Origin: an uncultured Bacillales bacterium
GTDB lineage: Bacteria > Bacillota_I > Bacilli_A > RF39 > UBA660
Direction of reading: 5' to 3'
Assembly: GCA_946628005.1 (NCBI GenBank)
Contig: CAMOWA010000003.1
Span: forward strand, 28-64,027
Length of the DNA stretch: 64,000 nt
Below the pieces are notes generated by a model, which did no database searches, was not told the origin of the DNA, and worked only from the letters and a program-made list of their open reading frames with translations. Positions 9,286 through 46,040 of this stretch are shown here, piece after piece (position 1 is the stretch's first letter; each line of letters begins with the position of its first letter). A program made the translations under genes and the position numbers.

Positions 9286-10182
9286 ATGAAAGAATATTTA
9301 AATCAAGAAAAATTAAATCTGATGAGGAATAAAAAAGGTTTTATTGCGGCACTTGATCAAAGTGGAGGTTCTTCAGCTAAGACTCTTTTAAAATATGGTG
9401 TTGATTCTAATATGTATCATAGTGATGAGGAGATGTTTGAACTTATTCATGATATGAGAAAAAGAGTATTTACATCTCCTGCTTTTACTAATGAAAAAAT
9501 CATTGGAAGTATTTTATTTTATAAAACAATGGAATCTAAAGTAGAGGGTAAATATACTTCTGAATATTTATGGGATAATAAAAAAATATTATCTTTCTTA
9601 AAAGTAGACAAGGGTTTAATGGAGGAGATAGAACAAGTTCAGTTAATGAAAGATATTCCTGATTTAGAAGAACAACTTTCTGAAGCTAGAACGCGTGGCG
9701 TATTTGGAACGAAAATGCGTAGTGTTATATTAGGTGCTAATAGAGAGGGAATAAGAAAAATTGTAAAACAACAGTTTGAATTTGCTAAAATTATTTGTGA
9801 TAATGGATTAGTTCCTATAATTGAGCCTGAGGTTGATATTCATATTGAAGATAAAGTGGAAGCCGAAAAAATATTAAAAGAAGAAATAAAGACTCAACTA
9901 GATAATTGGAATGAAAGTCTTTATATCATGTTTAAATTTACTATACCAACTATTGATAATTTTTATGAAGATTTGTATGATTATTCATGTGTTGTTCGTA
10001 TCGTTGCTTTATCAGGTGGGTATGAAATGGATGATGCTTGTGAAAAGTTATCTCGTAATAATCGTATGATTGCATCATTTTCTAGAGCTTTATTAGAAAA
10101 TTTGAGATATCAACAATCTGATGAAGAATTTAATAAGGAATTAGAGACTGCTATTGATAAAATATATCAAGCTTCTATTTAA
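9286..10182 (+). CDS. fda: Class I fructose-bisphosphate aldolase
   Basis: N-terminal KKGFIAALDQSGGSSAKTLLKYGV matches the staphylococcal-type class I Fda. Length is 298 aa. Confidence 0.8.
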   Translation: MKEYLNQEKLNLMRNKKGFIAALDQSGGSSAKTLLKYGVDSNMYHSDEEMFELIHDMRKRVFTSPAFTNEKIIGSILFYKTMESKVEGKYTSEYLWDNKKILSFLKVDKGLMEEIEQVQLMKDIPDLEEQLSEARTRGVFGTKMRSVILGANREGIRKIVKQQFEFAKIICDNGLVPIIEPEVDIHIEDKVEAEKILKEEIKTQLDNWNESLYIMFKFTIPTIDNFYEDLYDYSCVVRIVALSGGYEMDDACEKLSRNNRMIASFSRALLENLRYQQSDEEFNKELETAIDKIYQASI

Positions 10183-20760: not shown

Positions 20761-22004
20761 ATGTTTACTAAAAGTATTGATAAAAGAATTAAAATATTAT
20801 TTTTTGTGTTTTTGATTCCTTTTTTTCTTATTCTTATTAAGGTCTTTTATATTCAGGTTTTTGAGTATAAAAAATTAAATAAGTTAGCTAAAAATTTATG
20901 GAGTAGGGATTTGGAAATACAAGCAGAGAGAGGTAAAATATTTGATAGAAATGGTGTTGTTTTAGCGGATAATTTAACTACCACTTCTTTAGTTATTCTT
21001 CCAAATCAGGTAAAAGATAAGGAGCTTGTTACTAAGAAGTTAGCAACTATTTTGAATGTTTCTTATGATTCTATGAAAAGGCATGTTTATAAAAAAACTT
21101 CAATTGAGAGAGTTCATCCAGAGGGAAGAAGGCTTTCTTATGATGTTGCTGAAAAGATTCAGAGGCTTCATTTTGATGGTGTTTATTTAGTTAAAGAATC
21201 TAAGAGAGATTATCCTTATAAGGATTTACTTTCACATTCTTTGGGTTATGTTGGTATTGATAATCAAGGGTTATCTGGATTAGAATATCAATATGATAAA
21301 ATTTTAACTGGTGAGAATGGAGCTATTAAATATTTTAGTGATGCTCATGGTAATAAATTATCTGTTAGTGATCAATATGTTTCTCCAAAGAATGGTTTAA
21401 ATATTAATTTAACTATTGATTTAAATATTCAAAAATCTTTGGAGAGAGAATTATCTAATATTAAAGATATGTTTCAGCCGGAGATGGCTCTTGCTATTGT
21501 AGTAGATCCAAAAAATGGTGAAATACTTGGAATGAGTTCTTATCCGGATTATGATCCTAATCAATATCAAAAATTTAGTTCATCTTCTCTAAGTCGTAAT
21601 CTTCCAATTTGGGCTAGTTATGAACCTGGAAGTACTTTTAAAATTGTAACAATGGCTTCTTCTGTTGAAGAAAAAGTTATTGATATTTTTAAAGATCGTT
21701 TTTATGATTCTGGTAAAGTTAGTGTTGATGGAAGTGTACTGAAATGTTGGAAATCTGGAGGACATGGAGATCAAACTTTCTTAGAAGTGTTACAAAATTC
21801 TTGTAATCCTGGCTTTGTAAAACTTGGTCAATTGTTAGGAAAAGAAAGATTGTTTTCTTATATAAAAAATTTTGGTTTTGGTGAAAAAAGTGGGATTGAT
21901 TTAAATGGTGAGGGAACAGGAATATTATTTCCAATGGAAAAGATTGGTAATGTTGAACTTGCTACTTCGGCTTTTGGGCAAGGGATTAGTGTCACACCTA
22001 TACA
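20761..22004 (+). CDS. spoVD: SpoVD-like class B penicillin-binding protein, 5' segment (interrupted)
   Basis: gaggtgg RBS and ATG at 20761. TM segment, PBP dimerisation region, SxxK (STFK) and SxN (SCN). The frame runs ..AFGQGISVTP and then 4 codons into the insert before a stop. Confidence 0.8.
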
Positions 22005-22021
22005 CCTTATTGTCTAATAAA
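21991..22021 (+). other. attL of element E1
   Basis: Core TACA at 22001-22004. Element-side arm GTCTAATAAA at 22012-22021, 7 nt from the CA dinucleotide. Confidence 0.7.
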
Positions 22022-22157
22022 TGATACCTTTATTATTATTAGAGGAATAAATAAGTAGTAAATATACGAAAAGTATGATATTGAGTATATATATAAACAT
22101 GTAAATTAACTTACATTTTAGTGTAAGTTTTTTAGAATTATATAAAAAAAAGCAAAA

Positions 22158-22176
22158 TTCGTACAAAATGTACGAA
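22158..22176 (+). promoter_or_regulatory. Operator-like perfect palindrome upstream of the E1 ATPase gene
   Basis: TTCGTAC-aaaat-GTACGAA, 65 nt upstream of the ATG at 22241. Confidence 0.4.
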
Positions 22177-22240
22177 AATGTTAAAAAAATATGTTTTTTT
22201 TGCACGGAAAGTGCTAAAATTTGTATAGAGGTGAATTTCT

Positions 22241-23536
22241 ATGTATAGAAAAATAGAAGAAGAATTAAAAAAGTGGAAGAATGATTATAAGATGCCACTT
22301 ATGTTAGTTGGCGCAAGACAAACAGGAAAAACATATATTTTAGAAGAATTTTGTAAGGAAAATTTTGATAATTATGTTTATATAAATTTGGATAAAGAAG
22401 AAAATATAGCTGAAATATTTGAAGAAACTATCGATCCAAATACAATAATAGAAAAAATAGAAATAATTAAAAATGTAGTTATTAATCCTGAGAATACAAT
22501 AATATTTCTTGACGAAATTCAAGTAAGTGAAAGAGCTATTACATCTTTAAAATATTTTTGTGAAAGTGAAAAACAATATAAAATTGTTACTGCTGGCTCT
22601 CTACTTGGAGTTAAAATCAATAGATTTAAATCATCATTTCCAGTTGGTAAAGTAACAATTAAATATCTATATCCAATGGACTTTGAAGAATATTTAATGG
22701 CCTTGAAGGAAGATAAGTTAATTAATGAAATAAAAACTCATTATGAATCTAATGAAGCTCTAATGAATCCAATACACGAAAAAGCATTAGATTTATATAA
22801 AAAATATTTAGTACTAGGTGGAATGCCTGCTATGATAAATAATTTTATAGATAATGAATGTAATATATCGCATGTTGATTTTACTTTACAAGAACAAATA
22901 ATAACTTCATATTTAGCAGATATGAATAAATATACTGAAAATAGTGAAGGAATTAAAAATAATCAAATATATAATTCTATACCTAAAGAACTTGCTAGAG
23001 TTAATAATACTTTTAAATATAGTATAGTAGATAAGGATGCTAGAAAAGTTAGATATGAAAGTAGTTTGGATTGGTTACTTGCTAGTAATATGATATTAAA
23101 ATGTGATATGACTGAAAAAAATGAATCTCCTTTAAAAGCATTTGCTAATTCTGATAAATTTAAATTATATTTAAGTGATGTTGGATTACTTAGATCATTA
23201 TCTAATTTAGATTACAGTGAAATTCTTTTAGATAAAAATGAAATGTTTAAGGGAGTCCTTACGGAAAATTATGTGGCATGTTCCTTATATCCTAATTCTA
23301 AAGAATTATATTATTATAATTTTGATAGATATGAAATAGATTTTTTAATAAAAATAGATGGAGATATTATTCCAGTAGAAGTTAAAAGTGGTAGAAGAAC
23401 TAATAGTAAAAGTTTAAATGAATATATAAAGAAATATAATCCTAACTATAGTATTAGAATATCTTCTAAAAATTTTGGCTTTGAAAATAAAATAAAATCT
23501 GTACCACTTTATGCAGTATTTTGTATTAATAAATAA
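22241..23536 (+). CDS. AAA+ ATPase (AAA_14 + DUF4143-type architecture)
   Basis: Walker A GARQTGKT and Walker B IIFLDEIQ. The 431-aa length and C-terminal EIDFLI..PVEVKSG segment are typical of DUF4143 ATPases. Confidence 0.7.
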   Translation: MYRKIEEELKKWKNDYKMPLMLVGARQTGKTYILEEFCKENFDNYVYINLDKEENIAEIFEETIDPNTIIEKIEIIKNVVINPENTIIFLDEIQVSERAITSLKYFCESEKQYKIVTAGSLLGVKINRFKSSFPVGKVTIKYLYPMDFEEYLMALKEDKLINEIKTHYESNEALMNPIHEKALDLYKKYLVLGGMPAMINNFIDNECNISHVDFTLQEQIITSYLADMNKYTENSEGIKNNQIYNSIPKELARVNNTFKYSIVDKDARKVRYESSLDWLLASNMILKCDMTEKNESPLKAFANSDKFKLYLSDVGLLRSLSNLDYSEILLDKNEMFKGVLTENYVACSLYPNSKELYYYNFDRYEIDFLIKIDGDIIPVEVKSGRRTNSKSLNEYIKKYNPNYSIRISSKNFGFENKIKSVPLYAVFCINK

Positions 23537-23787
23537 TAAAATGTAGTAATGTTTATAATATAACATTTAAAGATATGCTATTGAAGCAGCTTTAAGAATA
23601 ATTTATATATGGAGGTAATAAATATGACAATAAAAGATGAATTACGCGAGCAATTTAATTTTTTTTAAAAGACAATCATTTGAAAATAAAAAAGAGTATA
23701 AAAGAAGAATTATATTTGCCAGAGGTTAGAGGAAAAGTTATTGATAAGAAAAAAAGACATTATAATAAATAAGATGATATATTATAT

Positions 23788-23818
23788 GAAGAAAAACTAT
23801 ATGTTCTTCTTTTTTTTT
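23788..23818 (+). terminator. Rho-independent terminator within E1
   Basis: GAAGAA/TTCTTC stem followed by T9. It follows a frameshifted small-ORF relic at 23634-23772. Confidence 0.5.
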
Positions 23819-23898
23819 GAAAAATGATAGATAAAATATAAATTTCTGAGTTCTTTTTTTGTTTAAAAAAAATATAATTTAAAGAAAGGACAAAGTAT

Positions 23899-24105
23899 AT
23901 GAAAAATGAAAGTAAAGTACCATCTAAAATAATAGAGTTAGAAACAAGTATTAAATTACTTGAATATTTAAAACAAAGAAATACTATTGATGATGGGATG
24001 TATAATTTTACTATTAATAAATTATTAAATAAAATCGAAGTGGAAAAAAGTAAAATTAATGATGATTATATAAATAATATTAATAATTATAAATTATTAA
24101 TTTAG
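23899..24105 (+). CDS. Small 68-aa protein directly upstream of the E1 recombinase (candidate directionality factor or regulator)
   Basis: aaggac RBS. Its stop lies 10 nt before the recombinase ATG. No recognisable motif. Confidence 0.4.
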   Translation: MKNESKVPSKIIELETSIKLLEYLKQRNTIDDGMYNFTINKLLNKIEVEKSKINDDYINNINNYKLLI

Positions 24106-24115
24106 GAGGTGCGTT

Positions 24116-25777
24116 ATGGACTTGTATACAGTTAGGGAAAATATTATGAAAGGTATTAATCTCCAAGAATTAAATTTAAGAGTATGTTTTTATGCAAGAG
24201 TATCAACTGATAAAGATGAACAATTACATTCTTTACAAAGTCAAATATCTTTCTTTAATGATTACATTAGTAAAGTTCCTAACTGGGAATTTATAGGTTC
24301 ATATATTGATGAAGGTATTAGTGGTACACAGGTTAAAAAACGTGAAGAATTTTTAAGAATGATACGAGATGCTAAAAGACATAAATTTGATTTAATATTA
24401 ACAAAAGAAATATCAAGATTTTCAAGAAGTACATTAGATAGTATTATGTATACACAAGAATTATTATCTAATGGTGTTGGTGTATATTTCTTAAATGATA
24501 ATATAAATACAATATTACCTGATTCTGAACTTAGACTTACAATGATGTCTTCAATTGCTCAAGATGAAGTGAGGAGACTTTCTGAAAGAGTTTCGTTTGG
24601 TATGAGGCGAAGTATTGATAATGGTGTAGTGTTAGGTTGTTCTAATATCTATGGATATGTAAAAGATAAAGGAAAATTAGTTATAGATGAAGAACAAGCA
24701 GAAATGATTAAAATAATATTTGATAGATATGCTAATACGAGTGATGGTTTATCTAAAGTATCAAGATATTTATTTAGTTTAGGATATAAAAGTAGAACTG
24801 GTAAAAAGATTGATACAACAATACTTACTAGAATTATAGAAAATCCTAAATATAAAGGATATTATTGTGGACATAAATCAAAAGTATTGGATTATCGTAC
24901 TAAACAAAAGAAAAGATTAAATGAATCTGATTGGATTGTTTATAAGGACTATGATAATGTTCCACCAATAGTATCTGAAGAACTATGGGAACGAGCTAAT
25001 GTTAAATTAAAAGAGAGACAAGATAGTTTTACAAATCGTGCAGTTAATAAGAAAGTATTTCAAAATAGATATACTTATTCAGGAAAAATATATTGTGGAT
25101 GTCATAGTCTTACTTATCATAGATCAAGTGCTGGGAAAAGGAAAAATAATCCCGTATGGGAATGCCAAATATATAGGAAAGAAAGTTTAAAAGGATGTTC
25201 TAATCCTAGAGTTTTTGAACTAGAACTTGATGAAGTTTTTAAAGATATGTTTAATAAATTATTTAAAAGAAGAAATAATATATTTGATGAAATATTAAGT
25301 GAATGTAAGAATTATTTAGAAACTAATAATAATGAATCAGATATTAAAAATTTAGAGTCTAAAATAATAGTTTTAGATAATAAAAAGGATAAATTACTAG
25401 AACTTGTTATGGAGGAATACTTATCTAAAGAAGATTACAAAAAGCAAGTAGATTTAATAAATGAAGATTTAGTTATTTACCAAAGTAAAATAAATGAATT
25501 AAAAAACAATAAGAAAGATAAAAATTATATGGAAAATAAAATTAGTGAAATAAAAAATGTTTTAGAAAAGTCTTTAGAAGATGATAAATGCTATAGTGAT
25601 ATATTTAATGAGATAATAGATAGAATAATAGTTCATAAACAAAGTGATAAAGTGATTCAATTATATATTTTTATTAAGACAGGAGAAAGTGTATATACTA
25701 CTTCTGATAATTTATGCAAAAAGTTTCATTTATTAGACCCTGTTACAACAAGTTATGGCGGTTTCTGCTGTTGTTAA
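24116..25777 (+). CDS. Large serine recombinase (resolvase domain + recombinase domain + zinc ribbon + coiled coil)
   Basis: FYARVSTDKDEQLHSLQSQ contains the catalytic Ser. Also ILTKEISRFSR, the Cys cluster CGCHx..WECQ..C and a long coiled coil. The ORF reads through attR into the spoVD 3' segment. Confidence 0.9.
   Translation: MDLYTVRENIMKGINLQELNLRVCFYARVSTDKDEQLHSLQSQISFFNDYISKVPNWEFIGSYIDEGISGTQVKKREEFLRMIRDAKRHKFDLILTKEISRFSRSTLDSIMYTQELLSNGVGVYFLNDNINTILPDSELRLTMMSSIAQDEVRRLSERVSFGMRRSIDNGVVLGCSNIYGYVKDKGKLVIDEEQAEMIKIIFDRYANTSDGLSKVSRYLFSLGYKSRTGKKIDTTILTRIIENPKYKGYYCGHKSKVLDYRTKQKKRLNESDWIVYKDYDNVPPIVSEELWERANVKLKERQDSFTNRAVNKKVFQNRYTYSGKIYCGCHSLTYHRSSAGKRKNNPVWECQIYRKESLKGCSNPRVFELELDEVFKDMFNKLFKRRNNIFDEILSECKNYLETNNNESDIKNLESKIIVLDNKKDKLLELVMEEYLSKEDYKKQVDLINEDLVIYQSKINELKNNKKDKNYMENKISEIKNVLEKSLEDDKCYSDIFNEIIDRIIVHKQSDKVIQLYIFIKTGESVYTTSDNLCKKFHLLDPVTTSYGGFCCC
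25729..25747 (+). other. attR of element E1
   Basis: Element-side arm TTTATTAGAC at 25729-25738, 7 nt from the CA of the TACA core at 25744-25747. Confidence 0.7.
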
Positions 25778-26405
25778 TGGAGGATATTTATATAAACCTT
25801 ATATTGTTAAAAGTATAAGTGATGATGTAAATACTATTGTTCAACAAAATAGTAGAGTTTTAAGAAGAAAAGTGATTAGTTCGGAAACTTCCTCTATTAT
25901 GAGAATTGCTTTAGAAAGCGTTGTTGCTAAGGGTGGAGGAAAAAGTGCATATATTGAGGGATATCGTATTGGTGGAAAGACAGGTACTGCTCAGAAACAA
26001 CAAAATGGTGTTTATTTAGTTAATAATTATATTATGAGTTTTATGTCTATTGTTCCATCTAATGATCCTCGTGCTGTTTTATATTTAGCAATTGATAATC
26101 CTAAAAATACTGCAATGTTATCTAGTTATACAACTACACCAATCGCAAGAAGAATTTTATTAGATATTATTGATGCTTTAAAAATACCTAAACAAAAGGG
26201 TGGTATGGAAAAGGACTTAGAATGGAATGATAAATTAACTTATGAAGTTCCTAATGTAGTTGGTTTAAATGTTAAAGATGCTAAAAAACAATTATTTAAT
26301 TATGATGTTAAAATTATTGGTTCTGGTGATATCGTATATGAGCAATCTCCTAAAGCAGGAGAGGTAATTGAAGAAGGTAGTAAAATAAGAATTTATATTA
26401 ATTAG
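25748..26405 (+). CDS. spoVD: SpoVD-like class B PBP, 3' segment (KTG motif + single PASTA domain)
   Basis: In-frame continuation ..(I)QQVMAVSAVVNGGYLYKPYIV. KTGTA motif. C-terminal PASTA domain (VPNVVGLNVKDAKKQL..). Confidence 0.8.
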
Positions 26406-26531: not shown

Positions 26532-28196
26532 ATGAATGAGACCATTGGTTCAAAAGGTGGGCATAATGATAGAAGAAGGTCTTTAATTATTTCTCGAAAG
26601 AAAAAAGAAAAATTAAAAGAAGAACAAGAGATTAAAGAATTAGAGAAATCTGTTAAAAAGAATCGAAAATATGTTTTAATTAAAACTGTTCCTTTAGTTT
26701 TAGCTGAGGGGATTATTCAATTTGTTAGTCCTTCTACAAATCTGAAAAATAAGACAGATGAATATGGTGATGAAGATTTTGTTTTTACTGATGATTCCAG
26801 TAAAAAAAGCAGTAATACTACTTCTAAAAAGTCTAGAAAAAAGATTATTTCTATTAATGGAGAGAATGTTGTTGTTTCCATACCTCCAAATAAAAATAAT
26901 AAGAAGAAAGTACATGATGAAATAGAATTATTAGAAGAGGACAAGGATGAGAAAGATAAAAAGGAATTAAAGAATAAAAAAGATACTAAGAGTGAGAAAG
27001 ACAAGAATAGTTTCAATCCTGCTCCAATTTTAATACCTATTTCAATAGGAGAAAAGATTTTTAATAATTCTTCTTCTAAATCAGTTGATAAAACTCATTC
27101 TTCTGATGAAATGAAGATTATAGATAATATCCTTTCTTCATCAATAGAGTTAGAAAAAGTTAAATCTAGAAAGATAGTTGAGGCTTATGAAAAAGAGTTA
27201 AAGGATATTCGTTATGATTTAAGATTATTAATTTATGAATATAATCACTTAGTTGATGATGAAGAAAAATTATTATTTAGTGATGAAGCTGCTGATTTAT
27301 TAGATAAGCTTACTTCAGTTATTTCAAAGTTAGAAGAACTAGAAAAAAAGATTCAGATTGATGATTTAGATAAATATGATGATGATTATATTTATTATTT
27401 AATTGAAGAGTATATGAAGGAGTTTAAAAGTCAAAAAATTGTAGATGAGTTAAAAGATTCTCCACTATATATTGAAATAGTTGAAAAAATAGAAGAGCTT
27501 CAGCAAAAAAAAGATATTTTGTCTGGGCAAGTAGAAGAGAAGAAAACAAATTTTGAAGAGAGAGAAAAGAAGTTTGATGAATTAAAAGAAAAATTTAATA
27601 AAATTGAACAAATTAATAAAGAATTATTAGATTTTCAGTATGAGCAAGATGCTTTATTACAAGAAGCACGTGAAAAGGTTAGGGATGCTTTAACTGTTGA
27701 GGAGAAAGTTAAGGTAGAGATGAAAATTTTAGATAATCAAAGTAGAAGATTATTAAGGATGATTGCCTTGCGTATGTTTTTTCCTGGTAGTTTTTCTGCA
27801 AAAGCAATTTCTTCTTCTATCGCAGCTTATCTTTTGTTTACTCGTAGGCTTATTCAACCAGAGACTATTACAAAGAAGTATAAGGTAATTAAAGTAATTG
27901 ATTATGGTGAAGATATTAAAGACAGTATTTCTTCATTAGAAGGCGCTATTGATTTACTTGGAAAAACTGGGAAACAGGTTGATAGATTAATAGATGATAT
28001 TCATGATAAGTTTAAAGACTATATTGGTGTTGTAAAAGAATGTGATTATTTACTATATGATTTGAATAAAATTAAGGATAATATAAAAGAAAAAGAGTAT
28101 GAGATGGAAAGAATTAAAAAAGAGCAAGAAAATGTGTTAAAAGAAAATAATGCTAAAGTTTTGAAAATAGGTGAATATCCTATTGAAAATGTGTAA
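26532..28196 (+). CDS. Hypothetical K/E-rich coiled-coil protein with one central hydrophobic segment
   Basis: Long ORF. Possible extended -10 promoter (TGgTAAAAT) upstream. No recognisable motif. Confidence 0.5.
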   Translation: MNETIGSKGGHNDRRRSLIISRKKKEKLKEEQEIKELEKSVKKNRKYVLIKTVPLVLAEGIIQFVSPSTNLKNKTDEYGDEDFVFTDDSSKKSSNTTSKKSRKKIISINGENVVVSIPPNKNNKKKVHDEIELLEEDKDEKDKKELKNKKDTKSEKDKNSFNPAPILIPISIGEKIFNNSSSKSVDKTHSSDEMKIIDNILSSSIELEKVKSRKIVEAYEKELKDIRYDLRLLIYEYNHLVDDEEKLLFSDEAADLLDKLTSVISKLEELEKKIQIDDLDKYDDDYIYYLIEEYMKEFKSQKIVDELKDSPLYIEIVEKIEELQQKKDILSGQVEEKKTNFEEREKKFDELKEKFNKIEQINKELLDFQYEQDALLQEAREKVRDALTVEEKVKVEMKILDNQSRRLLRMIALRMFFPGSFSAKAISSSIAAYLLFTRRLIQPETITKKYKVIKVIDYGEDIKDSISSLEGAIDLLGKTGKQVDRLIDDIHDKFKDYIGVVKECDYLLYDLNKIKDNIKEKEYEMERIKKEQENVLKENNAKVLKIGEYPIENV

Positions 28197-29310: not shown

Positions 29311-30299
29311 ATGAAAAAAATGGATTACATTTTATTATTTGTAGTTTTTCTATTATCCATTTTTGGATTATTAATGGTATATTCTTCATCAAATATTTGG
29401 GCTGATTATAAATTTCATGATTCTTTTCATTATCTTAAATATCAATTTTTATTTTTTATTGTTGGAATCTTATTTGTATTTTTAATATCTAAAATTCATT
29501 ATAGGTTTTACTATACTCATGCTAATCAGATTTTGATATTTAGTTTAATTTTATTAATACTTGTTTTAATCCCTGGTATTGGTAGTATTCGAAATGGAAG
29601 TAGGAGTTGGTTTGGTATTGGTTCTTTTGGTATTCAGCCTAGTGAAGCTGCTAAAATAAGTATTTTGATTTTTACGAGTAAATATTTATCTAGAAGTGAT
29701 GGCTATATTAATAGTTTTATAAAAGGGATATTTCCTATTTTATTTATGACTTTTTTTCTTTTTGGTCTTATTATGCTTCAACCTGATTTAGGAACAGGAA
29801 CAATTTTATTTTTATCTGTTATATCTTTATTATTTATTGCTGGAGTTAATTTAAAATTCTTTTTATGTGGTGGTTTTATAGGACTCTTTGGATTAATTGG
29901 ATTGATAATAATAGCTCCTTATCGTCTTCAGAGAATTACTTCTTTTCTAGATCCTTGGAAAGATCCCTTAGGTACTGGTTTTCAAATGATACAAAGTCTT
30001 TATGCAATTGGACCTGGTGGTTTACTTGGAGAAGGATATTTAAATTCTATTCAAAAACACTTTTATTTACCAGAACCGCAGACTGATTTTATTTTTTCCA
30101 TAATTACGGAAGAGTTTGGTTTTATAGGTGCACTTGTTGTTGTTATTTTGTTTTCTATTATATTATATCGAGGTATTTTTATCGCAACACATTGTAATGA
30201 TTTGTTTGGAAAATATTTATCTTTTGGAATTGTTTTTCAATTAATATTTCAGGCTCTATTAAATTTAATGGTTGTAGTAGGGTTAATACCAGTTACAGG
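29311..30299 (+). CDS. spoVE: SpoVE/FtsW-family SEDS protein, 5' segment (interrupted)
   Basis: Ten-TM-type profile. RSWFGIGSFGIQPSE and PEPQTDFIF motifs. It ends ..GLIPVTG, with the stop codon supplied by the first bases of the insert. Confidence 0.8.
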
Positions 30300-30306
30300 G
30301 TAAGTC
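30291..30306 (+). other. attL of element E2
   Basis: AGTTACA-GG-g-TAAGTC. Crossover GG at 30298-30299. Confidence 0.65.
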
Positions 30307-30628
30307 CTACTAGGTAACTGATAATGATAAATAAAATAAACCTTTATTTTAAAAGGAATTTGAGATTTTAATATAAAATAGAAAATATTAATAATGAGAT
30401 AAAATTTATAATAATTATTAAAAAATACAAAATTTTGCGGATAAAAAAAGGGGTAATTTTACCATTACTGCAAAGTTATTGTTCTTATAAGAGGTACCCA
30501 TGAAACGAAAAATAATAAAATAAAAGACTAGATTTTCTAGACTTTTTTCGTAAAATTTACATATGTTAAATAGATTGTTTATTAAGTAATAATTAAAATA
30601 TGATAAAATTATAATAGGTGATGAGTGT

Positions 30629-31393
30629 ATGAAAAAAAATAAAAAAATAATCACACTTATATTTATAACTATTTTTATTTTATTAATTTTATCTATTATA
30701 TTTATTTTATATAATAAGAATAAAGTACATAATAATACAAAAAAAGAATATATAAAAGAAGAAATAAAAAATAAAGATGAAAATAAAGAAAAAGAAGAAA
30801 CTAAAAAGGAAGAAACTAATGTAGAAGAAGAAATAAAAGTTGAAGAAGAAACAAAAAATGAGGAATATCTTGAAAAAGAAGAGAATAATAATTCAAAAAC
30901 AAATAATAGTCAATTTAATAGTAAAAACAACAATAATCAAAACAATAATCAAAATAATAATCAAAATAGTAGTCAAAACAATAATCAAAATAATAACCAA
31001 AATAATAATCAAAATAATAATCAAAATAGTAGTCAAAATAATGATACACCTAAAGAAAGTACACCACCTCCTCCTCCAACATACACATGTCCTTCAAACT
31101 ACTCATTAAATGGTACAGAATGTATTAGTACACAAGCAGCAAATTATATTTGTACAGATGGAAGAGTGGAATATTCAAATGGAACTATAAGTGGTTGTAT
31201 TAATATGAATGAAGGTTATTATATAGAAGAAGGAGCATGCCCTGCAGGATATGGAGAATTAAAAATAATTTCTATAGGAGTACCAGATATGACAAAATGT
31301 TTGCCAGTATATTCAAAAGTACCTGTATGTACAGAAGATTATAATCTACAAGGTTCAACTTGTATAAAAATAATACCCGCAACTCAAAGTTAA
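30629..31393 (+). CDS. Signal-anchored protein with K/E-rich and (NNNQ)n low-complexity linker and a 10-Cys C-terminal domain (E2 cargo)
   Basis: N-terminal TM segment. Asn/Gln repeat and a PPPPP hinge. The motif Cx3Yx2xGxxCI occurs at both ends of the Cys-rich domain. Confidence 0.6.
   Translation: MKKNKKIITLIFITIFILLILSIIFILYNKNKVHNNTKKEYIKEEIKNKDENKEKEETKKEETNVEEEIKVEEETKNEEYLEKEENNNSKTNNSQFNSKNNNNQNNNQNNNQNSSQNNNQNNNQNNNQNNNQNSSQNNDTPKESTPPPPPTYTCPSNYSLNGTECISTQAANYICTDGRVEYSNGTISGCINMNEGYYIEEGACPAGYGELKIISIGVPDMTKCLPVYSKVPVCTEDYNLQGSTCIKIIPATQS
30925..31043 (+). repeat. Tandem 12-nt repeat (aat aat caa aay) encoding (NNNQ)n
   Basis: About 10 near-identical in-frame units, with two larger 48-nt super-repeats ending ..caaaatagtagtcaaaa. 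Confidence 0.8.
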
Positions 31394-31420
31394 AAGATTA
31401 GAGAAATCCAATCTTTTTTT
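31393..31420 (+). terminator. Rho-independent terminator within E2
   Basis: AAAGATT/AATCTTT stem with a 10-nt loop, followed by T7. Confidence 0.55.
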
Positions 31421-31726
31421 ATGTTATTGTCAAGATGAAGATATTGTTGGATTGCTATTAATTTTGGATAATTGTTGGTTAGTTTTTTTTAAAAACAAAT
31501 ATATAAGAAACAGTTGAGGCAATATCTAAACGATTAGGTAAGAGAACAATAGAAAAATAATCACTAAGTCAATCAATTAGTTTATCTAACTATAATTGTA
31601 ACAAATTAATTCTGCTTTTTAGGAAGATTTAAATATGAATGTTATATCATTATATAAATTTAAAGAGAAAATAAAAGATATTCATTATTTTCTTTTTTTG
31701 TGAATAGATTTAATAGAGGTGGCTCT

Positions 31727-31861
31727 ATGAAACGAATAGATAAAGATGGTAAACGAAGAAAACTTAACATTGAATATATTTATAAAAAAGATGGAACCAA
31801 GCTTGAGGAAATTCTAAAGGAGGGATATTTATGCTATTTAAGAAATTTAAAGGTCAAATGA
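31727..31861 (+). CDS. 44-aa basic protein (not in the ORF track), tentatively TnpW-like
   Basis: agaggtgg RBS 5 nt upstream. MKRIDKDGKRRKLNIEYIYKKDGTKLEEILKEGYL loosely resembles small proteins found with clostridial large-serine-recombinase transposons. The similarity is weak. Confidence 0.3.
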   Translation: MKRIDKDGKRRKLNIEYIYKKDGTKLEEILKEGYLCYLRNLKVK

Positions 31862-32008
31862 TTTACTTTTTTTGAATGGATGATGGTTGTTACATGGCAT
31901 CTTGAGGTAATGGTATCGCGTAATTTAGGATTGGAGGAATTTCATAATGCAATATAGATTTATCAATAACAATATTTTGGATTTACTTAGTATGGAGGAC
32001 TTTTATTA

Positions 32009-33583
32009 ATGGAATATATCTGTGGTGCTTATGACAGACTATCTGATGCCGATAGTAAAATAGATGAAAGTTCTTCTATACAAAGTCAAAAAATCATAAT
32101 TGATTCTTTTGCAAAATTTAACAATCTTAAGATATATAAACATTATGTAGATGATGGTTATTCTGGTGGTAATTTTGATAGACCTGCTTTTCAAGAGATG
32201 ATTAATGATATTGAATCTGGAATAATTAATTGTGTTATTACCAAAGACTTATCAAGACTTGGTCGTGAAATGTATAAAACAGGTAAATATATAGAAGAAT
32301 ACTTTTTAGAAAAAGGTGTTAGATATATTGCAATTAATGATTCCTATGATTCTAATATTGGTGATTCAATGCTTGGAATTAGATTAAGTGTAAATGATTT
32401 ATATTTAAGAGATGTATCGAAAAAAGTAAAGACTTCATTAAGAGCAAAACAAAATCGTGGCGACTATATTGGTTCATTTCCTTTATATGGTTATAAGAAA
32501 GATCTAAATGATAAGCATAAATTAATTATTGATGAAGAAGTAAGACATATAGTCGAATTAATTTATGACTTGGCTTTAGAGGGAAAAAGTCCTAATAAAA
32601 TAGCAGAATATTTAACCTTAAAGAAAATACCAATTCCTATTGTTCATAAACAAGAACCTAGAGCAAAAGATATCACTGAAAATGATGGATTTGGGATTTG
32701 GAAAAGACAGACAGTAAAAGGTATTTTAACAAATGAAATGTATATTGGAAATATGGTACAAAATACTCATAATAAAATTAGTTATAACTCAAAGAAATTA
32801 AGGAAAACATCAAAAGATGAATTAATTATTGTTGAGGGTACTCATGAAGGAATTGTATCTAAGGAAACTTTTGATAAAGTTCAAGATATACTTCATAAAA
32901 AAACAACTACTCGAGTTACTGACCATCAATTAGATTATTTGTTAGGAGGATTACTTTATTGCCATGAGTGTGGTCGAAATATAAGAATAAGTGAAGATAT
33001 TTTAAAATCTGGTGTAAGACATTATACTCAATGTAATTTATATACTAGAAAAGGAAAATATGGAATATGCTCATCTCATAGAATTAATTATGATTGGTTA
33101 GAAGAAGATATTTTAGAATATTTACAAGATGTATGTGAAAAATTTTGTAAACATTATGACTTTAATGAATTAGAAGATAGTTCAGAAAATATTGTTATGA
33201 AAAATTTAAAAGAAATTAATCAAAAAATTGAAAAATTAAACAATTTATTAAATTCTCAAAAATCTACCATAGATAATCTATATATGGATAAAGTAAAAGG
33301 TTTAGTAGATGAAGAAATGTATAAACGAATCTACGATAAAACAAAACAAGAAATTAATAGATTAAATATGGAATTAGAAGAATTAAATAATAAAAAACAA
33401 ATTAATGAAAAGCAGCCATCTGATAATACTAGTTTTAATAAATGTAGAAGATCTGTTTTAGATTATATGTCTTTAAAGAATCCTAGGAAAGATCAGATAA
33501 AAAGACTTGTAGATAAAATAGAAATTGATAAAGATAAAAAAGTATATGTACATTTAAGATTTCCAGAGTTAATAGAAATTTAA
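32009..33583 (+). CDS. Large serine recombinase (E2)
   Basis: YDRLSDADSKIDESSSIQSQ contains the catalytic Ser. Also VITKDLSRLGR, zinc ribbon CHECGx..C..C and a C-terminal coiled coil. It ends 88 nt before the attR core. Confidence 0.9.
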   Translation: MEYICGAYDRLSDADSKIDESSSIQSQKIIIDSFAKFNNLKIYKHYVDDGYSGGNFDRPAFQEMINDIESGIINCVITKDLSRLGREMYKTGKYIEEYFLEKGVRYIAINDSYDSNIGDSMLGIRLSVNDLYLRDVSKKVKTSLRAKQNRGDYIGSFPLYGYKKDLNDKHKLIIDEEVRHIVELIYDLALEGKSPNKIAEYLTLKKIPIPIVHKQEPRAKDITENDGFGIWKRQTVKGILTNEMYIGNMVQNTHNKISYNSKKLRKTSKDELIIVEGTHEGIVSKETFDKVQDILHKKTTTRVTDHQLDYLLGGLLYCHECGRNIRISEDILKSGVRHYTQCNLYTRKGKYGICSSHRINYDWLEEDILEYLQDVCEKFCKHYDFNELEDSSENIVMKNLKEINQKIEKLNNLLNSQKSTIDNLYMDKVKGLVDEEMYKRIYDKTKQEINRLNMELEELNNKKQINEKQPSDNTSFNKCRRSVLDYMSLKNPRKDQIKRLVDKIEIDKDKKVYVHLRFPELIEI

Positions 33584-33663
33584 AATCAGTTATTTGGAAG
33601 CATTACTGCCATTTTTCAGTTATTTTGCAAAGGCAACCTATCAAAAATTAGTTGCACTTGCAA

Positions 33664-33679
33664 GACTTAGGGTGTTACT
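33664..33679 (+). other. attR of element E2
   Basis: GACTTA-g-GG-TGTTACT. Crossover GG at 33671-33672. Confidence 0.65.
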
Positions 33680-33772
33680 CTTCCATTTTTAAGTTATGGT
33701 GGAAGCAGTTTACTAGTTAGTATGGGAAGCGTGGGAATTTTACTTAGTATTTCTAGAAACTTAACTTATTAG
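33673..33772 (+). CDS. spoVE: SpoVE/FtsW-family SEDS protein, 3' segment (33 codons)
   Basis: (G)VTLPFLSYGGSSLLVSMGSVGILLSISRNLTY* is the universally conserved SEDS C-terminal motif. It has no start codon of its own and is preceded by an in-frame TAG. Confidence 0.8.
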
Positions 33773-33785
33773 TAAATAATATTTA

Positions 33786-33814
33786 TTGACAAAAATCAAC
33801 ATTTGTGGTATAAT
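33786..33814 (+). promoter_or_regulatory. Consensus SigA promoter with extended -10
   Basis: TTGACA, 17-nt spacer, TATAAT, with TG at -15/-14. Confidence 0.65.
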
Positions 33815-33840: not shown

Positions 33841-34527
33841 ATGAATATGAATATTTCTAGTAATGAAAATTTATTTGAAATTAGATTAGATTCAATACGA
33901 GGATTAGTAAGTAAAGCTACTTTAAAACATTTAGAAGAAAAAAATATTATTATGGTAGGGGATTTATTAGAAAAGTCATGTGATGATGATTTTATAAATC
34001 ATCTTTCAAATTCTAAATTAATGGTTGATAAAGAAACTTTGGATGTTATTAAATATTTAAAATGTAAATATTTAAATGTTGATCCTCAAATTGATTTTTC
34101 AAAAGAGTATTTTTATTTTTTAGAACAATTTGGATTTACGAATAGATCTCATAAGGCTCTTTATCTAATGGGAATTGGGAACGATAATATTTTTGAATTA
34201 TTAGATCCTAATAATAAAAAAAGATACTTGAATAATTATAGGCTTATAGGTGAGACTGTATATGATGAAGTTGTATGTAAACTATCAATTATTTATAATT
34301 ATTATAAGCAAAAGTATCAACAGGATTTGATGATGGCTGAGGCTAATTCCGTTAAATATCTTTTACCGGAATTTAATTATAATTGTGATGAGATAATGAA
34401 TTTACTTTTAAGTGGAAAGTTATCTTTAGAAAGTAGTCAAGAGTTACTAGATAGAATAGAGTCTTTAAGAATGATGCTTTATGAGTATAACAATGCTCAT
34501 TTTGTGGAAAATGAAAAAAAGCTTTAA
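33841..34527 (+). CDS. Hypothetical protein with two helix-hairpin-helix-like (RNAP alpha-CTD-like) segments
   Basis: IRLDSIRGLVSKATLKHLEEKNIIMVGDLL and FGFTNRSHKALYLMGIGNDNIFELL resemble the LxLSxRxxNxLxxxGIxTxxDL pattern. Confidence 0.35.
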   Translation: MNMNISSNENLFEIRLDSIRGLVSKATLKHLEEKNIIMVGDLLEKSCDDDFINHLSNSKLMVDKETLDVIKYLKCKYLNVDPQIDFSKEYFYFLEQFGFTNRSHKALYLMGIGNDNIFELLDPNNKKRYLNNYRLIGETVYDEVVCKLSIIYNYYKQKYQQDLMMAEANSVKYLLPEFNYNCDEIMNLLLSGKLSLESSQELLDRIESLRMMLYEYNNAHFVENEKKL

Positions 34528-44307: not shown

Positions 44308-45099
44308 ATGAATAATAATAAAATTAAATCTATTTATACGGATTTAATAGTTGAATCTAATTCAAATAAGGAGAATGGTAGAGTTATTTATCAAGATGAT
44401 TCTATTCTTGTTAAAGAGTCTTCTTTTAATAAATGTCATTATACTACTATTTTTTTTGATGATATAACTGATTCTTTGAAATTTAAAAAAGTTCAAGATA
44501 TTTTTATTCATGAATTAAAGAAATATTTAAATCTTAAGAAAAAAGAAAAAATATTAGTAATTGGTTTAGGTAATGAAAAATCAACTCCTGATTCGTTGGG
44601 GCCTTCTACAGTAAAAAATATCTTAATAACTCGTTATTTGTTTTTACTTGGTGATGTAGAAGATGGATATCAAAATGTTTCTGCATTTGCTCCTGATGTT
44701 ATGGGAAATACTGGTATTGAAACTAGTCATATTGTAAGAAAAATAGTAGATGAAGTAAATCCTACTAAAGTTATTGTAATTGATTCTTTAAAGAGTGATC
44801 ATATAGAAAGAATTAATCGTACTATTCAAATTACAGATAAGGGTATTCATCCTGGATCTGGTATTGGAAATGTCCGTAAAGAAATAAGTTTTAAAACTAT
44901 TGGTGTAGATGTTATTGCGATTGGAGTTCCTACTGTTGTAAATTTATGTAGTCTTATTAAAAAATCTAAAAAGAATATTTTTTTAGGAGAAAACTTAATT
45001 GTAACACCTACTAATATTGATTTTATGATTGAAAAGTTATCTATTCTTATTGGTAATGGTATTAATATTTCTCTTCATGATAATTTTATTCGACAATAA
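44308..45099 (+). CDS. gpr: Spore germination protease GPR
   Basis: VIGLGNEKSTPDSLGP, VIVIDSL and IGVPTVV motifs. Located next to spoIIP and rpsT as in Bacillus. Confidence 0.8.
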   Translation: MNNNKIKSIYTDLIVESNSNKENGRVIYQDDSILVKESSFNKCHYTTIFFDDITDSLKFKKVQDIFIHELKKYLNLKKKEKILVIGLGNEKSTPDSLGPSTVKNILITRYLFLLGDVEDGYQNVSAFAPDVMGNTGIETSHIVRKIVDEVNPTKVIVIDSLKSDHIERINRTIQITDKGIHPGSGIGNVRKEISFKTIGVDVIAIGVPTVVNLCSLIKKSKKNIFLGENLIVTPTNIDFMIEKLSILIGNGINISLHDNFIRQ

Positions 45100-45137
45100 T
45101 ATTGATTTATTCTTACTAAAATATTATTGGTGATATT

Positions 45138-46040
45138 ATGAAAAAAAAATTTATTTCTAAAAAGAAAAGAAAAAAAAGAAATAGAATATTTTTTTTAATT
45201 TTTATTTTAATTGGAGTGTTTTTAAGTTATAAGAAACTTGAAGTTAGTAAGATTAAAATTAAAGATAAAGATTTTATTCATTTAATTGTGTCTAATACTT
45301 TTTCATATGAAGAAAAGAATTTTATAGAAACTTTTATTGATAAAACTATTGAAGTAAGTAATCCTGTTTATTGGTTAAGAAATGATTATCAAAATAATAT
45401 TTCAACTATTAAGGAGAATAAAGTTGTAGATAAAAAACCTTTAGTTTATTTATATAATTCTCATCAAGGAGAGGAGTATGCTTTTTCGGATTATGTTGAA
45501 TTTAGTGTTCATCCTACAGTAATGATGAATAATTATATTTTAGAAGATTTTTTTAATAAGAATAATTGTTTTTCGTTTGTTGAAGAAAAGTCTATTAAAG
45601 ATATTTTAAGTCAAAATAATTGGAAATATAGTGAGAGTTATCGAGCTAGTAGATTATTATTGGAAGATGTTATTATAAATTATCCATCTTTGAAATATTT
45701 TATTGATATTCATAGAGATAGTTTAGATAAGAGTCATACTACTATTACTATTGGAGATAAAGATTATGCTTCTTTATTGTTTATTGTTGGTTTAGAAAAT
45801 CCTAATTATCAAGAGAATCTTTCGTTTACAGAAAAAATTAATTCTATTATTCAAGAAAGATATCCTGGACTTAGTAAAGGAATATATAAAAAAAGTGGTC
45901 CTGGAGTAAATGGGGTTTATAATCAGGATTTTTCACCTAATACTATTTTAATTGAGATAGGAGGATATCAAAATACAACTTCTGAAGTTTTAAATTCTAC
46001 TTTAGCATTTGGTAATTGCTTTTTGGAGGCTATTTCATGA
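45138..46040 (+). CDS. spoIIP: Stage II sporulation protein P
   Basis: YLYNSHQGEEY and FIDIHRDS motifs. N-terminal TM segment. Confidence 0.75.
   Translation: MKKKFISKKKRKKRNRIFFLIFILIGVFLSYKKLEVSKIKIKDKDFIHLIVSNTFSYEEKNFIETFIDKTIEVSNPVYWLRNDYQNNISTIKENKVVDKKPLVYLYNSHQGEEYAFSDYVEFSVHPTVMMNNYILEDFFNKNNCFSFVEEKSIKDILSQNNWKYSESYRASRLLLEDVIINYPSLKYFIDIHRDSLDKSHTTITIGDKDYASLLFIVGLENPNYQENLSFTEKINSIIQERYPGLSKGIYKKSGPGVNGVYNQDFSPNTILIEIGGYQNTTSEVLNSTLAFGNCFLEAIS

Follow-up and report, generated by a model that had tools for sequence, protein, structure and literature searches.

Several spore-forming bacteria carry a sporulation gene that is split by an integrated element and is restored when the element is excised from the mother cell (PMC5025042, PMC4191935, PMC5595907). 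Most of the known cases are from Bacillus and Clostridium, and the targets are sigK, spsM, spoVFB, spoVR, gerE, kamA, and yabG. Described systems include skin in sigK (SpoIVCA and Skr in B. subtilis, CD1231 and CD1234 in C. difficile; PMC5025042, PMC6957869), SPbeta in spsM (SprA and SprB; PMC4191935, PMC5499854), and gin in gerE of Bacillus cereus ATCC 10987 (the large serine recombinase [LSR] GirC and the recombination directionality factor GirX; PMC5595907). Here we describe E2, an LSR-encoding element that splits a spoVE-like gene in a 64,000-nt stretch of DNA from an uncultured Bacillales bacterium (contig CAMOWA010000003.1 of assembly GCA_946628005.1). We call this whole stretch the window; its GC content is 25.7%, and coordinates are window positions unless another contig is named. 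We think that E2 is probably an intervening element of the skin/gin type in a new target gene, and that it is excised during sporulation to rebuild spoVE.

The closest analogue is gin. Each is a small non-phage element that sits in a sporulation gene, has an LSR gene at its edge, and encodes a small accessory protein; excision of E2 would reconstitute the open reading frame (ORF), as it does for gin. Unlike gin, which has three recombinases and interrupts the gene for a transcription factor, E2 has one recombinase and interrupts the gene for a membrane-bound cortex synthase. Its LSR belongs to an unrelated family, whose relatives resemble integrative and conjugative or integrative mobilizable elements (ICE/IME), and its host belongs to an uncultured low-GC lineage of gut Bacilli. 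Skin and E2 both have the recombinase gene at the edge, beside the 3' fragment of the target; in both, the recombination unit alone is conserved and the cargo varies; and both are present or absent between strains. Skin is prophage-derived, 14-48 kb long, and targets sigK, whereas E2 is 3.4 kb long, has larger relatives that look conjugative, and targets spoVE. Control of the directionality factor or the recombinase by sigma-E and SpoIIID has been demonstrated for skin. The LSR of E2 is similar to SprA of SPbeta (PDB 9dxh, E = 4e-17), the two elements appear to share the attL-rdf-int-attR layout, and SPbeta reconstitutes a spore-envelope gene in the mother cell. SPbeta is an active 134-kb phage, whereas E2 has no phage genes, and its LSR is at best 34-37% identical to those of viral contigs. 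We searched the literature for spoVE or spoVD with intervening or serine-recombinase elements and found no description.

The split gene, the element, and the two junctions are as follows.

29311..30299, + strand: the interrupted spoVE-like SEDS gene, 5' part, with codons 1-329 and the first two bases (GG) of Gly330
30300..33672, + strand: element E2, 3373 bp with one copy of the GG; GC content 24.3% versus 25.7% for the window
33673..33772, + strand: 3' tail of the split gene, from the third base of Gly330 to the TAG stop, encoding (G)VTLPFLSYGGSS..NLTY*
30273..30324, + strand: attL, with host half ..CCAGTTACA, core GG at 30298-30299, and element half GTAAGTCCTACTAGGTAACTG..
33646..33697, + strand: attR, with element half ..TTGCAAGACTTAG, core GG at 33671-33672, and host half TGTTACTCTTCC..

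A first-pass annotation of this DNA had proposed that a SEDS gene is split here by an LSR element, that the insert itself supplies the stop codon of the 5' ORF, that the conserved SEDS tail lies 3.37 kb downstream with no start codon and after an in-frame TAG, and that a crossover at GG would give an in-frame ORF of 362 codons. All of this held up. The 5' ORF (29311-30303) encodes 330 amino acids and ends in ..LIPVTG; its TAA stop at 30301-30303 is element DNA and lies directly after Gly330. The rest of the protein, GVTLPFLSYGGSSLLVSMGSVGILLSISRNLTY*, is encoded at 33671-33772. Joining 30299 to 33673 in silico gives an in-frame ORF of 362 amino acids, with the insertion after codon 330. The split itself is further supported by alleles that lack the element and by 25 related insertions at the same dinucleotide (see below). 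We conclude that spoVE is inactive while the element is integrated, because a stop codon directly follows Gly330 and the last helix, with its invariant LPF.SYGGSS motif, is 3.4 kb away.

Aligned to the SpoVE/FtsW/RodA family, the joined protein matches nearly the whole Pfam profile FTSW_RODA_SPOVE (PF01098; positions 4-354 of 356, E = 4e-112), so it is a full-length SEDS protein that includes the C-terminal LPF.SYGGSS motif. SpoVE is the SEDS glycosyltransferase for synthesis of the spore cortex. Among models for the individual family members, the SpoVE model (TIGR02615) is the best match, at 431.4 bits (the NCBIfam cut-off is 448.8), and the FtsW model scores 396.2 bits, which is above its cut-off of 337.5. 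The gene follows mraY, which is itself preceded by a gene for a spoVD-like penicillin-binding protein (PBP), and in the related locus L016 it is followed by murG. SpoVE seems to be the best label for the split gene, if an unproven one. A protein search identified orthologues of 362 amino acids at 70-99% identity to the joined protein, with full-length matches at 99%, 94%, and 87%.

Alleles without the element confirm the crossover. Four independent lineages have an empty site with the attB that was predicted at first pass: L004 and L005, which are from the window's species (about 97-99% nucleotide identity to the window), and L006 and L207 (about 88-89%). In blastn comparisons to the window, all four break at 30299 and resume at 33671, and the two blocks overlap on the query by exactly 2 nt (GG), so the insert is 3373 bp. 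The first-pass annotation had argued that only the GG register, and not the more obvious AGGGT alignment of the junctions, restores the reading frame, and the breakpoints in the empty sites exclude the AGGGT register. In the correct register, the junctions share GG alone, as expected for a serine integrase. The predicted attB (CCAGTTACAGGTGTTACTCTTCC) is present exactly as predicted on L004 and L005, whose empty site reads ..ATACCAGTTACAGGTGTTACTCTTCC.. and whose gene encodes a 362-amino-acid protein that is 99% identical to the join. The occupied junction was found again in independent assemblies (L001-L003 and L212-L219), which rules out an assembly artefact.

The recombination sites also look like those of LSRs: the crossover is at a non-palindromic core of 2 bp that is flanked by imperfect inverted repeats. 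Rebuilding attP from the ends of the element gives ..CAAGACTTAG-GG-GTAAGTCCTAC.., with GACTTAG-GG-GTAAGTC at the center. The perfect 6-bp inverted repeat around GG that had been reported at first pass is there, and across the longer arms 12-16 of 25 positions are symmetric, versus about 8 expected. Likewise, attB (AGTTACA-GG-TGTTACT) is symmetric at 6 of 7 positions, as had been described. The strings for these sites are CCAGTTACAGGTGTCACTTTACC and CCAGTTACAGGTGTTACTC for attB and GACTTAGGGGTAAGTCC and TGCAAGACTTAGGGGTAAGTCCTACT for attP. The crossover is in the Gly codon of a conserved SpoVE motif, ..P-V-T-G-V-T-L-P.., and the codons GTT-ACA-GG-T-GTT-ACT form a natural near-palindrome that suits a recombinase dimer.

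Inside E2 we identified these features.

30629..31393, + strand: cargo ORF of 254 amino acids, with an N-terminal membrane helix, a low-complexity stretch, and a Cys-rich C-terminus
31675..31726, + strand: conserved non-coding block (..TTCATTATTT..GAATA..TTTATAGAGGTG) that lies upstream of the 44-amino-acid ORF and includes its ribosome-binding site
31727..31861, + strand: conserved basic ORF of 44 amino acids (MKRIDKDGKRRKLNIEYIYKKDGTKLEEILKEGYLCYLRNLKVK), a candidate recombination directionality factor
31948..32010, + strand: upstream ORF of 20 codons, with a GGAGG of its own and a stop codon that overlaps the start of the recombinase gene (TAATG)
32009..33583, + strand: LSR of 524 amino acids, with Resolvase, Recombinase, and Zn_ribbon_recom domains and R10/S12 of the catalytic motif

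The LSR matches all three Pfam domains (PF00239, PF07508, and PF13408) above their cut-offs, and an alignment of the family shows no variation at R10 and S12. It also matches the integrase family PHROG 95 (E = 3e-99). The gene reads towards attR and its stop codon is 87 nt before the core, so the recombinase is at the element's edge. Its closest solved catalytic domain is that of TnpX (2mhc, E = 5e-27), followed by the SPbeta integrase. TnpX and TndX are encoded on mobilizable or conjugative elements of Firmicutes (for TnpX and TndX, the clostridial Tn4451 and Tn5397); they excise circles at a 2-bp core and have relaxed target choice. The multi-targeting clade of LSRs that includes TndX-like enzymes usually carries DUF4368 (PMC10083194). 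In contrast, the LSR of E2 has no Pfam match to DUF4368 and is highly site-specific (25 of 27 loci; see below).

The rest of E2 is sparse. The 254-amino-acid cargo ORF has no family match and, among the relatives that we compared, is confined to the window's variant of the element; its low-complexity stretch is rich in K/E and N/Q and contains 12-nt tandem repeats. Nine of these repeats, which encode N/Q-rich NNNQ units, are at 30905-31052, and a repeat scan of the element found low-complexity coding repeats only. The 20-codon ORF is kept in the clade that is at least 82% identical and is absent in the 77% clade; it may couple or control translation of the recombinase. Domain and family scans of the element's proteins found no transfer functions (coupling protein, relaxase, or oriT), an Rfam scan of the element gave no matches, and there is no sigma-70-type promoter upstream of the 44-amino-acid ORF or the LSR gene. 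A shared 8-mer, ATATTCAT, was rejected as a promoter signal, as it is expected by chance in AT-rich DNA. E2 is essentially a bare recombination unit, or a miniature integrative element, that consists of attL, cargo, a small ORF, the LSR gene, and attR.

To place E2 among its relatives, we fetched homologs of the LSR with their flanking sequences from genomes, metagenomes, and viral contigs. The LSR has over 100 database clusters at 52-99% identity. We compared the 27 loci whose LSR is 50% identical or more and whose sequence extends 160 nt or more downstream. In 25 of them, the spoVE tail lies 71-116 nt after the LSR stop in the same register, and there the element always ends on the GG of the Gly codon. 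The left junction follows the same ..PVTG in the window, L098, L110, and L016, whose elements are 3373, 4450, 7298, and 3610 bp. The last of these is from a cultured strain, Erysipelatoclostridium sp. AM42-17; its LSR is just 39% identical, and it is inserted at the same position of spoVE. Synteny and synonymous sites vary from host to host, which means that many species are involved. This LSR family is specific for a site in spoVE, with most loci abutting the same Gly-codon GG.

Two relatives are somewhere else. On L094 (near position 9690) and L105 (also near 9690), the LSR-relative ends on GG and is followed by DNA that is not spoVE: GG+TTAAACA and GG+GTATACA, respectively. These look like insertions at secondary sites, whose first bases resemble the right half of attB. 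We considered whether these right ends might be attP or circle junctions, and rejected this for the host genes that follow (on L105, relA/spoT, cysS, and an IS110 transposase).

Only the small ORF and the LSR are conserved across the family, and the cargo varies: in L098 and L203 it includes genes for one kinase-like and one queuosine-salvage protein; in L110, for Fur, rubrerythrin, and a glutamate-synthase-like protein; and in L016, for a GGDEF-type protein. In L090 (5644-7671), L094 (5726-7666), and L105 (5673-7700), the gene immediately before the small ORF and the LSR encodes a type IV coupling protein (TraG/VirD4-like), and L090 also carries a DNA methylase and DUF7659. Because of these coupling-protein genes, the larger relatives look conjugative or mobilizable (ICE/IME-like), and E2 looks like a stripped-down derivative. 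We rejected a phage origin of E2, given that its best LSR relative in viral contigs is 34-37% identical and that only the integrase matches PHROG.

If the split gene were simply broken, its tail would be expected to decay. We examined 20 occupied loci: in 3 of them the contig ends first, and every one of the 17 that are long enough has an intact orphan tail, with the stop at 28-36 codons and GVTLPF.SYGGSS nearly invariant. Pooled across the tails, the ratio of nonsynonymous to synonymous polymorphism (pN/pS) is 0.33 in frame versus 1.07 and 4.6 out of frame, which indicates purifying selection on the orphan tail. The 5' parts of the gene are also intact where they are visible, including in L098, L110, and L016. 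We believe that the tail is regularly rejoined to the gene, as constraint on a 32-codon fragment that lacks a start codon and is separated from its promoter by 3-8 kb or more would otherwise not last.

We also noticed a variant arrangement in L202 (6996-8102 and 11638-11730 of a 1.49-Mb contig, OW818670.1, of GCA_942493215.1), which has an element at the same insertion site and yet has a whole spoVE of 368 amino acids. A spare tail, diverged at synonymous positions, lies at the left end of the element, and the original one is left as an orphan behind the LSR gene. Keeping the gene whole by means of a spare tail implies that spoVE matters to this host.

The split state is the assembled, dominant state in many metagenomes, so spoVE (and spoVD, which is also split; see below) would be dispensable for growth. 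This fits a SEDS-PBP pair that is used only in sporulation. Both alleles also occur within the window's species: in its 90% cluster, which has 35 members, both the 330- and the 362-amino-acid proteins are among the 15 listed.

The 44-amino-acid ORF may encode a directionality factor. All close relatives have it, at 59-100% identity within the close clade, and more distant homologues of 39-82 amino acids are found in the 53% and 39% clades, with the pattern xLxIxFIYxxxGxKLxxILxxxY..YLRN. Its pN/pS is 0.25, whereas the two alternative frames give 0.63 and 0.85, so this small protein is under selection. It has no Pfam or PHROG family match, and its 68 database clusters are all unannotated. Elements that interrupt sporulation genes have been described as having an attL-rdf-int-attR layout (PMC6957869), and since the 44-amino-acid ORF is at the corresponding place, we consider its product to be a candidate directionality factor. 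The overall architecture of E2 seems to match this precedent (PMC6957869, PMC5595907, PMC5025042). Verified directionality factors are small proteins of diverse structure, and in many cases they contribute a further strand to the zinc-ribbon domain (PMC12286644).

The host appears able to sporulate, and a second cortex gene in the window is also split. The relevant features are:

44308..46040, + strand: gpr at 44308-45099, which encodes the germination protease, and spoIIP at 45138-46040; both mark endospore formers
20761..26405, + strand: spoVD-like gene for a class B PBP, split by element E1 into a 5' part (20761-22002) and a 3' part (25746-26405)
Within E1, + strand: DUF4143 ATPase (22241-23536), ORF of 68 amino acids (23901-24107), and LSR (24116-25777)

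The host is an endospore former because gpr and spoIIP are side by side in the window, and with SpoVE as the best match of the interrupted gene, this would be a sporulation gene interrupted in an endospore former. Relatives of the window are titled in the databases as uncultured Bacilli, "Tenericutes", or Erysipelotrichaceae, and are from the guts of rabbits, ruminants, and humans. The spoVD-like PBP scores 684.5 against the spoVD_pbp model (cut-off 688), and the next model scores only 338. E1 splits this gene at ..TPIQ|QV.., and the joined sequence matches the intact orthologue in L202. E1, whose 68-amino-acid ORF is just upstream of its LSR gene, is unrelated to E2: its LSR is only 25% identical to that of E2. 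E1 is present in L004 and L006, where E2 is absent. In a second, very common species (L203-L206; its LSR, P0264, is in 138 collection blocks), both spoVD and spoVE are split. Some strains of this species (L204-L206) have a third LSR, of 576 amino acids, placed at spoVD's catalytic SxxK motif; there the fragment begins with ..TFKIITTAAS.

A few other features near these genes may be worth recording. In a sister species, the E1-type element in spoVD (L006/L007, 1-3109) carries genes for an acetyltransferase, a nucleotidyltransferase (AadA_C), APH, and a zeta toxin, which looks like an aminoglycoside-resistance cluster inside a sporulation-gene insert. Between spoVD and mraY, at 26532-28196, is a K/E-rich, coiled-coil-like ORF of 554 amino acids that has no family match and is conserved in the sister species (557 amino acids in L006); murE is at the corresponding position in Bacillus. 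Just past the stop codon of spoVE, at 33786-33814, is a perfect extended sigma-70 promoter (TTGACA-17-TATAAT with TG), and downstream of it is an unannotated ORF of 228 amino acids (33841-34527).

We propose that the LSR would carry out recombination between attL and attR, with the crossover in the 2-bp GG core and the direction set by the 44-amino-acid protein, probably acting as a directionality factor. This would release a circle of 3373 bp and leave an in-frame spoVE of 362 codons. That excision occurs at all is suggested by the comparative evidence, including the finding that the in silico join equals the natural empty-site alleles exactly. By analogy with the skin, SPbeta, and gin elements described above, excision would most likely take place during sporulation and be confined to the terminally differentiated mother cell, so that the spore, as the germ line, would keep the element. 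Expression of spoVE only in the mother cell, and its dispensability for growth, are expected from the biology of spoVE in B. subtilis.

Several observations weigh against this proposal. The SEDS protein scores just under the cut-off for SpoVE and over that for FtsW, so a role specific to sporulation is our inference. By-eye matching to the sigma-E, sigma-K, sigma-G, and sigma-F consensus sequences gave only one weak sigma-E-like match (12 of 15 positions, in the conserved block upstream of the small ORF), so E2 has no convincing promoter for a sporulation sigma factor. The catalytic domain of the LSR is closest to that of TnpX, and TnpX needs no directionality factor. The AlphaFold model of the 44-amino-acid protein alone, a hairpin and a helix, has low confidence (pLDDT of 62.7). 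Neither an excised circle nor an attB of the same strain turned up; the attP junction TGCAAGACTTAGGGGTAAGTCCTACT had no matches in viral contigs, and no sample has both the empty and the occupied allele, which come from different samples and strains. L202 escapes disruption by its spare tail. Also, close relatives that are ICE/IME-like move between species (an LSR that is 94% identical is in a host with a divergent spoVE tail and different downstream genes), so excision could serve transfer instead of development.

This last point leads to another explanation, which is that E2 is an integrative mobilizable element of the usual kind, or the remnant of a conjugative one, and that the conserved, palindromic spot in spoVE is just a safe landing site. 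Excision would then be stochastic or coupled to transfer, and carriers would sporulate poorly or after chance loss of the element. The larger relatives with a type IV coupling protein, DNA methylase, and DUF7659 beside the same small ORF and LSR are as this would predict, as are the near-identical LSR in a divergent host, the polymorphism within the species, the two relatives at secondary sites, and our failure to recognize a sporulation promoter. We nevertheless think that this is unlikely, as mini-elements of 3.4-4.5 kb that are free of transfer genes keep the LSR and the small ORF intact in at least three lineages, and the orphan tail is under coding constraint across about 18 lineages. Moreover, an unrelated LSR element splits the coupled gene spoVD in the same genomes, which fits the idea that genes used only in the mother cell tolerate insertions. 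The mixture of alleles within one species, where the occupied and empty forms are both common, might instead reflect a reversible switch (active lysogeny or phase variation), with integration and excision in vegetative cells yielding sporulating and non-sporulating subpopulations. A TnpX-like catalytic domain would permit both reactions without a directionality factor, and the yin element in yabG exists in mixed integrated and excised states in culture (PMC10747680). But the empty and occupied alleles carry other substitutions and are from different samples, so they look like differences between strains, and after excision in growing cells a circle of 3.4 kb, having no replication function, would disappear, which would make the switch one-way. 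A switch therefore seems to us quite improbable. We give even less credence, and in fact very little, to a dead-end insertion, in which spoVE has been inactivated for good and its fragments decay; another SEDS protein would do the work, or the cell would have no cortex synthase at all. The gene is indeed truncated as it stands, and a second SEDS gene could be looked for in the 64-kb window only. However, there is no sign of decay: both halves are intact in every occupied locus that is long enough, the tails are under purifying selection, and the LSR and the small ORF are intact and conserved. L202, where a spare tail has arisen or been taken up and spoVE is thereby kept whole, also argues against a dead end.

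If E2 is, as we think, excised during sporulation to rebuild spoVE, then spoVE is a new kind of target, as it is part of the cortex peptidoglycan synthase itself. E2 also represents a new family of elements, which pairs an LSR with a 44-amino-acid partner (each with over 60 protein clusters, all unannotated) and whose larger relatives look conjugative and not phage-derived. The choice of site is explained by the invariant V-T-G-V-T codons, which form a near-palindrome around an invariant GG, and the LSR offers a well-defined natural pair of attB and attP sites. Because one carrier, Erysipelatoclostridium sp. AM42-17, has been cultured, the idea of excision is directly testable.

The most interesting aspect is that both halves of the SEDS-PBP pair are split in the window's genome and again in a second common species. 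We tentatively suggest, as a possibility that we would not bet on, that both partners of the cortex synthase (SpoVE and the class B PBP SpoVD) are split in the germ line across a clade of low-GC gut Bacilli, by unrelated LSR elements that derive from conjugative elements. The two excisions in the mother cell would then act as a two-key gate, and the doomed mother cell would be a cost-free place for excision and possibly for transfer. In any case, annotation pipelines would call such genomes defective in spoVE and spoVD, so sporulation may be mispredicted for many metagenome-assembled genomes from the gut.

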